Part shown: positions 26,755 through 29,700 of the stretch, piece after piece
Layout of the letters: every line of letters begins with the position of its first letter
How positions within the stretch are numbered: the stretch's first letter is position 1
Source: Escherichia coli
Lineage (GTDB): Bacteria; Pseudomonadota; Gammaproteobacteria; Enterobacterales; Enterobacteriaceae
Assembly: GCF_024502345.1 (NCBI RefSeq)
Contig: NZ_JALDNN010000001.1
Reading direction: 5' to 3' (one strand)
DNA: 64,000 bases
Program-made: the position numbers

Positions 26755-29700
26755 TGATTCAGGAGTGCGTTATGGACAGTCTCAATCTTAATAAACATAT
26801 TTCCGGCCAGTTCAACGCCGAACTGGAAAGTATCCGCACGCAGGTGATGACCATGGGCGGCATGGTGGAGCAGCAGCTTTCTGATGCAATCACCGCGATG
26901 CATAACCAGGACAGCGATCTGGCGAAGCGCGTCATCGAAGGCGACAAGAACGTCAACATGATGGAAGTGGCGATCGATGAAGCTTGCGTGCGCATTATCG
27001 CCAAACGTCAGCCGACGGCGAGCGACCTGCGTCTGGTTATGGTGATCAGTAAAACCATTGCCGAGCTGGAGCGTATTGGCGACGTGGCGGACAAAATCTG
27101 CCGTACTGCGCTGGAGAAATTCTCCCAGCAGCATCAGCCGTTGCTGGTAAGTCTGGAGTCGCTGGGCCGTCATACCATCCAGATGCTGCACGACGTGCTG
27201 GACGCGTTCGCGCGGATGGACATTGACGAAGCGGTACGTATTTATCGTGAAGATAAAAAAGTCGATCAGGAATACGAAGGTATTGTTCGTCAACTGATGA
27301 CCTACATGATGGAAGATTCGCGTACCATTCCGAGCGTACTTACTGCGCTGTTCTGCGCGCGTTCTATCGAACGTATTGGCGACCGCTGCCAGAATATTTG
27401 TGAGTTTATCTTCTACTACGTGAAGGGGCAGGATTTCCGTCACGTCGGTGGCGATGAGCTGGATAAACTGCTGGCGGGGAAAGATAGCGACAAATAATTC
27501 ACCAGACAAATCCCAATAACTTAATTATTGGGATTTGTTATATATAACTTTATAAATTCCTAAAATTACACAAAGTTAATAACTGCGAGCATGGTCATAT
27601 TTTTATCAATAGCGCGGTGATGCTGCCAACTTACTGATTTAGTGTATGATGGTGTTTTTGAGGTGCTCCAGTGGCTTCTGTTTCTATCAGCTGTCCCTCC
27701 TGTTCAGCTACTGACGGGGTGGTGCGTAACGGCAAAAGCACCGCCGGACATCAGCGCTATCTCTGCTCTCACTGCCGTAAAACATGGCAACTGCAGTTCA
27801 CTTACACCGCTTCTCAACCCGGTACGCACCAGAAAATCATTGATATGGCCATGAATGGCGTTGGATGCCGGGCAACCGCCCGCATTATGGGCGTTGGCCT
27901 CAACACGATTTTCCGCCATTTAAAAAACTCAGGCCGCAGTCGGTAACCTCGCGCATACAGCCGGGCAGTGACGTCATCGTCTGCGCGGAAATGGACGAAC
28001 AGTGGGGATACGTCGGGGCTAAATCGCGCCAGCGCTGGCTGTTTTACGCGTATGACAGGCTCCGGAAGACGGTTGTTGCGCACGTATTCGGTGAACGCAC
28101 TATGGCGACGCTGGGGCGTCTTATGAGCCTGCTGTCACCCTTTGACGTGGTGATATGGATGACGGATGGCTGGCCGCTGTATGAATCCCGCCTGAAGGGA
28201 AAGCTGCACGTAATCAGCAAGCGATATACGCAGCGAATTGAGCGGCATAACCTGAATCTGAGGCAGCACCTGGCACGGCTGGGACGGAAGTCGCTGTCGT
28301 TCTCAAAATCGGTGGAGCTGCATGACAAAGTCATCGGGCATTATCTGAACATAAAACACTATCAATAAGTTGGAGTCATTACCAGAGAAACAATGGAAGT
28401 ACCTGTATTATTACCAAAAGAACCAGCGGTTCTTTTGCGAAGAATATGTAGAGGACAAGAAACAGAACACCAATTAACGGTCCTAAAACCGCAAAATAAA
28501 GTCCGTGATGTATTACCCGACGTGAAACAGACATATCAAACTCCCTTTACTTACCTTTGAGCGCCAATTTAAGCGGGGTAAGTGAAGGGAGTGTGAAGAA
28601 CTATGCCGTAATATCCCAACCACGCGCTTTCCACAGTTCCGGTAACTGCGAAAGATGGGTAAAGGTGGTGACTTTCGGGTGAACGATCGGCTTATTGTGC
28701 GGGTCGGCGCAGAAGTAGAACACTTCCATACCTGCGTCGATACCAGATTGCGCACCGGCAACTGAGTCATCAACCAGAATGCAGTTTTCTACATTTACAT
28801 TCATCGCTTTTGCCGCATGGAACATTAACGCCGGGTCTGGCTTCCAGCGCTGAATATCGTAGCCGCTGAACAGTTTATCCGGGAAGTAGTGCAACATATT
28901 CAGCTTGCCCATAGAATGCTGCATTTTGTTATTTGGGCCGTTAGATACCACACACATTGGCGCAGTGATCGCTGACAGGAGCGCTCCAGCCCCTTCGATG
29001 GCTTCCAGTTCTGAATCGAACAGCCGAGCGACTTCTGCACGGTAAACGTGTTCAGCTTCTGTTTTCGCTAACGTAACACCATGTTCAAGGGAAACAATAT
29101 CGATAATTTCGTACAGTTTTACACCTTTGAAACGTTTGAATACCTCTTCAGGATCGAGCGTAATACCAAATTCCTGAAACATCGTTACATATGCGCGGGA
29201 GCAAATGACTTCACTGTCGACCAGCGTACCGTCGCAGTCGAAAAATACCGCTTCTATCCGGGACATGCCTTTCCTTTTTAATCAGTTTAACGTTTTCGTA
29301 GAGCCGATTTGCGCAACGCAATCGTTGCCGTATAAGTAAATCCAATAAAAAAGTCTCTCACAAACGCGCCTATTGTCGCATTTTGGTATACGATAGCGAC
29401 GGATTTTCCCTCCTTGTTCGGAAATAGATAATGAGTCATCAACATACCACCCAGACTTCTGGTCAGGGGATGCTGGAACGCGTTTTTAAACTGCGCGAAC
29501 ATGGTACTACGGCACGAACTGAAGTGATTGCCGGGTTCACCACCTTCCTGACGATGGTCTACATCGTATTTGTTAACCCACAAATTCTGGGCGTTGCTGG
29601 CATGGACACCAGTGCCGTCTTCGTAACAACCTGTCTGATTGCTGCTTTCGGTAGCATTATGATGGGATTGTTTGCAAACCTTCCGGTGGCGCTGGCTCCT

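Follow-up and report, generated by a model that had tools for sequence, protein, structure and literature searches.

The 768-bp IS1 element that separates phoU from yieH in this stretch of Escherichia coli DNA (64,000 nucleotides, referred to below as the window) is clearly not a simple insertion. It joins the bgl promoter region to a fragment of cbrB, two sequences that lie 9.08 kb apart in intact genomes, and copies of IS1 that are flanked by target duplications occur at the same left site in genomes that retain bgl. These observations bear out the proposal, made in a first-pass annotation of the window, that the K-12-type bgl...cbr interval was removed by an IS1-associated deletion. The most likely history, to which we would give somewhat better than an even chance, is insertion of IS1 at position -38 of the bgl promoter (Pbgl) followed by an IS1-mediated adjacent deletion. 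The window carries a new allele of a known type of event, the IS1-driven and recurrent loss of genes in E. coli.

The IS1 element and the sequences that flank it

Features of the locus, and a second IS1 from elsewhere in the window, are listed by window coordinates.

26772-27497, plus strand: phoU, intact; the core gene that borders the bgl island on the left, its product 100% identical to K-12 PhoU over residues 1-241
27505-27539, plus strand: terminator hairpin of phoU, with a stem of 15 bp and a U-rich tail after it; folding energy -18.7 kcal/mol, z = -5.85
27540-27615, plus strand: upstream bgl regulatory region that has been kept, with the AT-rich silencer and the CRP operator, ending at -38
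27584-27599, plus strand: core of the bgl CRP operator, TGCGA-N6-TCATA, retained
27607-27615: left 9-bp flank, CAATAGCGC, presumably the left-hand copy of a target duplication made when IS1 first inserted, and the one that survives
27616-28383, plus strand: complete IS1, 768 bp, with left inverted repeat (IRL) at 27616-27638 and right inverted repeat (IRR) at 28361-28383
27671-27946, plus strand: insA, 91 aa, open and intact
27865-28368, plus strand: insB' frame, 167 aa, open and intact
27920-27928, plus strand: A6C frameshift motif, TTAAAAAAC, intact
28384-28392: right 9-bp flank, AGAGAAACA, the deletion endpoint in cbrB, with no left counterpart
28384-28534, minus strand: 5' remnant of cbrB, nt 1-151 of 474
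28601-29266, minus strand: yieH, intact; the core gene that borders the island on the right, its product 100% identical to K-12 YieH
20702-21469, plus strand: sibling IS1, in the last codons of lpfC-O113, with the 9-bp duplication AACAAGGTG on both sides

The gap between the phoU stop codon (at 27497) and the 3' end of yieH (at 28601) measures 1,103 bp. The remnant of cbrB now forms a 51-aa chimeric ORF (28379-28534, minus strand), whose last codon and stop codon are supplied by IS1; the Pfam family CBRB is on record for the same 51-aa product. A consensus terminator scan did not flag the phoU terminator, though folding gives a strong hairpin. The other K-12 genes that map to the window, 55 in number and including tnaCAB, are all intact. 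A Shigella origin, which the number of IS1 elements had suggested, was rejected for this reason and because the lpfC::IS1 allele of the window, which turns up in 47 index blocks, is labelled Escherichia coli.

The identity of the element is evident from its ends and its reading frames. A length of about 768 bp and imperfect terminal inverted repeats of about 23 bp are those of the IS1 family (IS1A/IS1B type), as are the insA and insB' frames joined by -1 frameshifting at the A6C motif, and homologous copies are annotated "IS1 family transposase, programmed frameshift". The IRL reads GGTGATGCTGCCAACTTACTGAT (27616-27638), a motif matched exactly at two places in the window and at none in shuffled controls. 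At the right, the element ends in ...TTGGAGTCATTACC at 28383 (in longer form, ...AAGTTGGAGTCATTACC), which on the complementary strand is GGTAATGACTCCAACTTATTGAT. In TUM9812 and ET5, elements annotated as IS1B family match this copy with 99.9% identity, and the sibling IS1 at 20702-21469 matches it with 100% identity over 768 bp. Judged by its sequence, the IS1 at 27616-28383 is complete and apparently functional. The lone promoter-like match returned by a consensus scan lies inside the IS1 IRL.

The 9-bp (occasionally 8-bp) target duplication of IS1 is lacking at 27616-28383, where CAATAGCGC on the left faces AGAGAAACA on the right, and no direct repeat of 8-10 bp flanks the element at any offset. 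Because the sibling IS1 has a normal 9-bp duplication, the defect is specific to the copy between phoU and yieH; the sibling is an internal control for simple insertion. The missing duplication is a signature of secondary rearrangement and no argument against the identity of the element as IS1. The absence of a target duplication has been ascribed elsewhere either to adjacent deletion or to recombination between IS copies (PMC11708052). The differing flanks, like a spacing of about 1.1 kb between phoU and yieH of which 768 bp is IS1, had been recognized in the first-pass annotation, and both observations stand.

The missing interval and its two endpoints

E. coli K-12 MG1655, from 3,928,354 down to 3,862,035 (in reverse orientation), and the window are collinear except at two places, a 6.2-kb lpf island that lies between glmS and pstS, and the IS1 locus at 27616-28383. 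By alignment, about 9,078 bp of K-12 DNA, roughly 3,897,657-3,906,734, is absent from the window at the latter site. Because the K-12 allele of cbrB has a 3-bp indel near the breakpoint, a closer reference was sought. The closest complete genomes are FDAARGOS_943, FDAARGOS_944 and NCTC9064, in which the flanks are 99.5-100% identical and the interval is intact. NCTC9064 is the closest intact genome, its right flank being 100% identical over 4 kb. In the corresponding NCTC9064 locus (L015), 10918 is the last position of the left flank and 20001 the first of the right, with AGAGAAACA at positions 20001-20009, so that exactly 9,082 bp is absent.

Both breakpoints are base-exact at the ends of IS1 when NCTC9064 is used as the reference, and the segment 27540-27615 aligns with K-12 and NCTC9064 without differences up to the junction. 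As in an IS-bounded deletion, the sequences flanking IS1 are non-contiguous in intact DNA, and the missing DNA starts exactly at an IS end. The DNA that has been lost comprises the bgl promoter core from -37, the leader, bglG, bglF, bglB, bglH, yieL, yieK, cbrC and nt 152-474 of cbrB (codons 51-157). Microhomology between the two breakpoints, sought as a sign of illegitimate recombination, was not found; the A+T content around both sites is about 63-65%. The junction of the window was not found in complete RefSeq E. coli genomes.

The possibility that the island was never present was considered and rejected, since the bgl upstream region and the 5' remnant of cbrB both survive. With remnants at both ends, the ancestral phoU-yieH interval clearly held the bgl...cbr island, which in the lineage of the window is type Ia-like (K-12-like). 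The first-pass annotation had staked its reading on two points, that genes are missing relative to the ancestral state and that no duplication would turn up at some other offset, and both hold. Some of its particulars need revision. The missing interval, put at about 10 kb, is 9.08 kb by alignment. The reported absence of bglGFBH-yieLK-cbrCB is correct for bglGFBH, yieL, yieK and cbrC; of cbrB, the first 151 nt, or the 5' third, remain. The left junction had been placed where the bgl regulatory region begins and actually lies past the CRP operator, at -38/-37 as counted from the start of bgl transcription.

The left junction has the CRP operator on its upstream side and, in intact genomes, the -35 hexamer TTGCTA on its downstream side. 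What is kept is the silencer with the CRP site, and the core promoter is gone. Promoter numbering was anchored on the activating C-to-T change in the bgl CRP operator, which is numbered -67 in the literature (PMC9678765). This anchor puts the transcription start 38 bp past the junction and the bglG ATG at +131, a position of the ATG that fits the sequence.

Junction searches covered 5,426 complete E. coli genomes, and in these the exact left junction has gap-free matches in ECCTRSRTH03, NCTC9040 and 22AR0118. In the two that were examined, NCTC9040 and ECCTRSRTH03, CAATAGCGC is present on both sides of IS1 and bglG is intact downstream. SCPM-O-B-7615 gave a single-piece match in which the left site is offset by 1 base (AATAGCGCA), and in the Ec1120 group the left site is shifted by +1 nt, IS1 is inverted, and the deletion extends into cbrC. 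About 20 more genomes in the same search have IS1 elsewhere in the phoU-bglG intergenic region. The element at the left site is 99.2% identical to the window copy in NCTC9040 and 93.9% identical in ECCTRSRTH03; because the latter identity is so low, the insertions at this site must be independent, and the left site is one IS1 hot spot that has been hit independently. A simple IS1 insertion at this site with an intact bgl operon is the likely precursor. That state, with IS1 at the unchanged junction, is seen in the unrelated strains NCTC9040, ECCTRSRTH03 and 22AR0118; a close relative of the window lineage that combines bglR::IS1 with intact bgl was not found.

The right endpoint has a different distribution. 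The exact junction between IS1 and cbrB nt 151 is absent, in both IS1 orientations, from the 5,426 complete E. coli genomes, and a search of the same set for a simple insertion there, flanked by a duplication of its own, gave no single-piece match. The exact junction is present in the draft assembly GCA_050022275.1, which is 100% identical to the window over 6.2 kb, and in two assemblies of sequencing runs whose yieH haplotypes are very different; in one of these IS1 has the same orientation, and in the other it is inverted. Partial CbrB products or contig ends stop at cbrB nt 150-152 in at least 35 index blocks; these stops span at least five yieH backgrounds, some of them labelled Shigella flexneri. 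A 106-aa distal cbrB gene call was considered as a possible sign of IS1 insertion and rejected; the call starts from an internal TTG, and no IS lies between it and yieH. As these matches show, both ends of the window IS1 sit on recurrent IS1 targets. No genome was found in which IS1 occupies, to the base, Pbgl -38 and also cbrB nt 151.

Other IS1 events are common in the same interval. Among the 5,426 complete genomes there are at least seven other IS1-bounded deletions with different breakpoints, or eight with that of the window. The seven, all without a target duplication, are given in L015 coordinates.

PO06101/J3: IS1-bounded deletion, 10876-19071
Z503: IS1-bounded deletion, 10865-19692
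A65EC: IS1-bounded deletion, 10971-19679
TUM9812: IS1-bounded deletion, 11193-20087
19KM1863: IS1-bounded deletion, 15695-20084
Ec1120 group: IS1-bounded deletion, 10920-19473
HeN100: IS1-bounded deletion, 15496-19878

Simple IS1 insertions with 8-9-bp duplications are found in cbrB (S56, ECCTRSRTH03 and STEC276) and also in the cbrB-yieH spacer (ET5), in yieH (PEC414) and in bglF (NCTC9040).

Routes to the deletion

In the history that we prefer, an IS1 insertion into the bgl promoter region, downstream of the CRP operator and upstream of the -35 hexamer, would have come first, with duplication of CAATAGCGC (-46 to -38); natural precedents exist for this step. The right end of the resident IS1 would then have attacked AGAGAAACA in cbrB, 9 kb off, by intramolecular transposition. 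The intervening circle of 9,082 bp, including the right-hand copy of CAATAGCGC, the Pbgl core, bglG-cbrC and codons 51-157 of cbrB, would be lost, and IS1 and its left junction would stay untouched. Adjacent deletions promoted by an IS are known classically from IS1 (Reif and Saedler 1975; Turlan and Chandler 1995). Adjacent deletion is favored because IS1 is a classical agent of such events, because no genome was found with IS1 at both exact sites, and because, on grounds of parsimony, it requires one event fewer, two as against three for a route through recombination.

The competing route is a serious one, although we judge it to fall short of an even chance. Two IS1 insertions in the same orientation, at Pbgl -38 and at cbrB nt 151, could have been followed by RecA-dependent recombination between the 768-bp copies, excising 9 kb and one IS1. 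Both junctions are sites hit independently by IS1 elsewhere. The right site is found with IS1 ends in both orientations, and in at least five yieH backgrounds it is also, to the nucleotide, where contigs break; the recurrent use of nt 151 makes a separate second insertion quite plausible. A natural intermediate with two direct copies of IS1 is seen in ECCTRSRTH03 (NZ_CP041110.1), which, like the window, has IS1 at the identical Pbgl site and in the same orientation. It carries a second direct IS1 in the 5' part of cbrB, each element having its own duplication. ECCTRSRTH03 differs from the window in that the interval is present, in that its IS1 variant is the divergent one noted above, and in that the cbrB insertion lies at nt 70-78 rather than at nt 151, 73 bp away. 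The IS1 copies seen in the genome of the window are identical and would be good substrates for recombination. Against this route stand the need for three events and the finding that 0 of the 5,426 complete E. coli genomes have IS1 at cbrB nt 151 in either orientation, with none found to carry it at both exact sites; moreover, use of a hot spot at the right end is equally expected from intramolecular target choice by a resident IS1. Adjacent deletion and recombination between two IS1 copies give an identical product, which sequence alone does not separate. Since the two IS1 copies in the window are identical, a chimeric IS1, which would prove recombination, is not recognizable.

Two further explanations carry much less weight. 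It is very improbable that IS1 arrived together with the deletion in a single step, for example by capture at a double-strand break, with no prior bglR::IS1. Deletion-coupled movements without target duplications have been proposed for other IS elements, but in long-term evolution data all 14 of 14 IS-plus-deletion events were traced to a pre-existing IS (PMC11708052). A single step would also have to account for a left junction that coincides precisely with a recurrent site of simple insertion and keeps the expected 9-bp target, and for breakpoints that share no microhomology. The chance of an assembly artefact, in which two IS1 copies around an intact bgl...cbrB interval collapsed into one, is slighter still. 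IS1 is a multi-copy element, collapse across direct repeats is a known failure of assembly, and a two-IS1 arrangement does exist in ECCTRSRTH03. However, GCA_050022275.1, which was assembled independently, shows the same junction and matches the window with 100% identity over a 6.2-kb stretch that runs into the right end of the element; the linked lpfC allele is on a 4.74-Mb contig, pointing to a finished chromosome; and seven analogous deletions occur in independently finished genomes.

A broader reading would extend beyond the single allele explained here by IS1 insertion and adjacent deletion. In it, IS1 would favor two particular sequences in H-NS-silenced AT-rich DNA, Pbgl -46 to -37 at one end of the bgl/cbr island and cbrB nt 151 at the other, and from these hot spots would repeatedly bracket and then delete or mobilize (as IS1-bgl-cbr-IS1) the same module of about 9 kb in unrelated E. 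coli and Shigella. On this reading, natural insertions at -38, which part the CRP site from the core promoter, could also be an uncharacterized class of bgl regulatory mutation. We regard this generalization as rather unlikely. If true, it would be a natural case of targeted, quasi-deterministic island loss.

Consequences and comparison with known systems

From the gene content, the bgl system would be lost permanently and not silenced, and Bgl+ (salicin/arbutin) mutants should no longer arise through the bgl operon. The strain would be without YieL, YieK, CbrC and full-length CbrB; of these, CbrC is concerned with colicin E2 tolerance. Read-out transcription from yieH would now cross the cbrB stub and enter IS1 at its right end. 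Neither phoU with its terminator nor yieH has been damaged.

The allele is one more example of IS1 eroding the H-NS-silenced bgl-yieIJ island in E. coli of groups A and B1. With two sites reused to the base, Pbgl -38 and cbrB nt 151, and eight distinct IS1-bounded deletions within 10 kb, the locus could provide natural material for studying how IS1 chooses its targets and how deletions arise. The comparative picture illustrates IS1 target preference and the formation of deletions, and will be unsurprising to the specialist.

One mechanistic parallel is with the classical IS1 adjacent deletions (gal/R100), which proceed by intramolecular replicative transposition. There, too, the IS stays where it was and keeps one of its junctions, the missing DNA begins exactly at its other end, no target duplication is present, and the new junction is AT-rich. 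The window differs in that it records a natural chromosomal event that is known from its end product alone.

The laboratory Bgl+ insertions of IS1 and IS5 in bglR share with the window the IS1 element and the phoU-bglG intergenic region. Activating insertions lie upstream of the CRP operator, as does an IS5 at -207.5 if counted from the bglG ATG, or about -77 if counted from the transcription start, and those of IS1 tend to lie further upstream than this example (PMC9499468, PMC9678765). The window does not belong to this class: its junction at -38 is downstream of the CRP operator, bglGFB has been deleted, and nothing is activated.

Also related is the decay of the bgl-yieIJ locus described by Sankar et al. 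(2009, PMC2646131), which concerns the same locus and the same phenomenon. IS insertions and deletions, which leave bgl without function, are frequent there in E. coli of groups A and B1; about 20% of the type Ia/Ib bgl loci of these groups are non-functional, IS elements were found in bglHIK-yieJI in 10 of 33 type Ia strains, and bgl is disrupted by IS1 in S. flexneri (PMC2646131). Unlike the alleles in that survey, the allele of the window has lost nearly the whole island in one block, from Pbgl -38 to cbrB nt 151.

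Replication origin and fimbrial operon

2380-2611 (broadly 2364-2632): oriC, the chromosomal replication origin, between mioC (1900-2340) and mnmG (2722-4608)
42307-48328: dnaA-dnaN-recF-gyrB
16516-22719: lpf-O113 long-polar-fimbria operon, 6.2 kb, between glmS and pstS, not in K-12

On the minus strand of oriC, three AT-rich 13-mers (GATCTATTTATTT, GATCTGTTCTATT and GATCTCTTATTAG) and the DnaA boxes TGTGGATAA and TTATCCACA are seen. Directly beside the origin, mioC is a patch of local divergence: MioC shares only 96.6% identity with the K-12 protein, whereas nearly all adjoining proteins are 100% identical.

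The lpf-O113 operon of the window is decaying. There is a frameshift in lpfA near 17040, and the IS1 at 20702-21469, with its duplication AACAAGGTG, costs lpfC the last four codons. The truncated LpfC, of 837 aa, occurs in exactly this form in 47 index blocks, gut metagenome assemblies among them.

The cbrB break point and haplotype edges

Nucleotides 150-152 of cbrB are a recurrent break point, found in comparison loci L011, L012 and L033-L040, with a right flank equivalent to window position 28384. IS1 ends here in both orientations, and contigs end here in at least 35 index blocks, representing at least five yieH haplotypes; some of the proteins are labelled Shigella flexneri. None of the 5,426 complete E. 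coli genomes searched carries IS1 exactly at this position. Three contigs, which have the native A, start one base earlier, suggesting either an insertion shifted by 1 nt or an IS of a different type.

About 28706-30000: divergent stretch, yieH to adeP

An identical cbrB stub is common to lineages that split abruptly, by ~13%, from position 28706 inside yieH, the differences falling mainly at third codon positions. At the island's edge, position 28706 thereby marks a sharp boundary, either of a haplotype or of recombination. An 84-bp segment of the pstA-pstB spacer (25800-25883) is present in the window and in K-12 and is missing, as an alignment gap, from NCTC9064-type genomes; possibly this is an intergenic element of the REP type.

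IS1 around the bgl/cbr interval

L013 (NZ_CP041110.1, ECCTRSRTH03) 2490-13194: two direct IS1 copies around the bgl/cbr interval
IS1 copies at Pbgl -46 to -37: L014 (NCTC9040) 12151-12918; L013 2490-3257; L001 (another comparison locus) 6318-7085; L041 (Ec1120)

The IS1 copies of ECCTRSRTH03 are divergent, 93.9% identical to that of the window, and each has a 9-bp duplication of its own. Together they enclose bglGFBH-yieLK-cbrC and most of cbrB in a composite-transposon-like layout, a natural candidate intermediate for loss or mobilisation of the island.

The segment of the bgl promoter from -46 to -37 is a natural hot spot for IS1. It has been hit independently by distinct variants of IS1, inserted in either orientation, and a 1-nt shift is seen. 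The target has the CRP operator on one side and the -35 box on the other, so IS1 at this site splits the activator site off from a promoter that depends on CRP. The natural hits differ in this position from the activating bgl insertions selected in the laboratory, which lie upstream of the CRP site.
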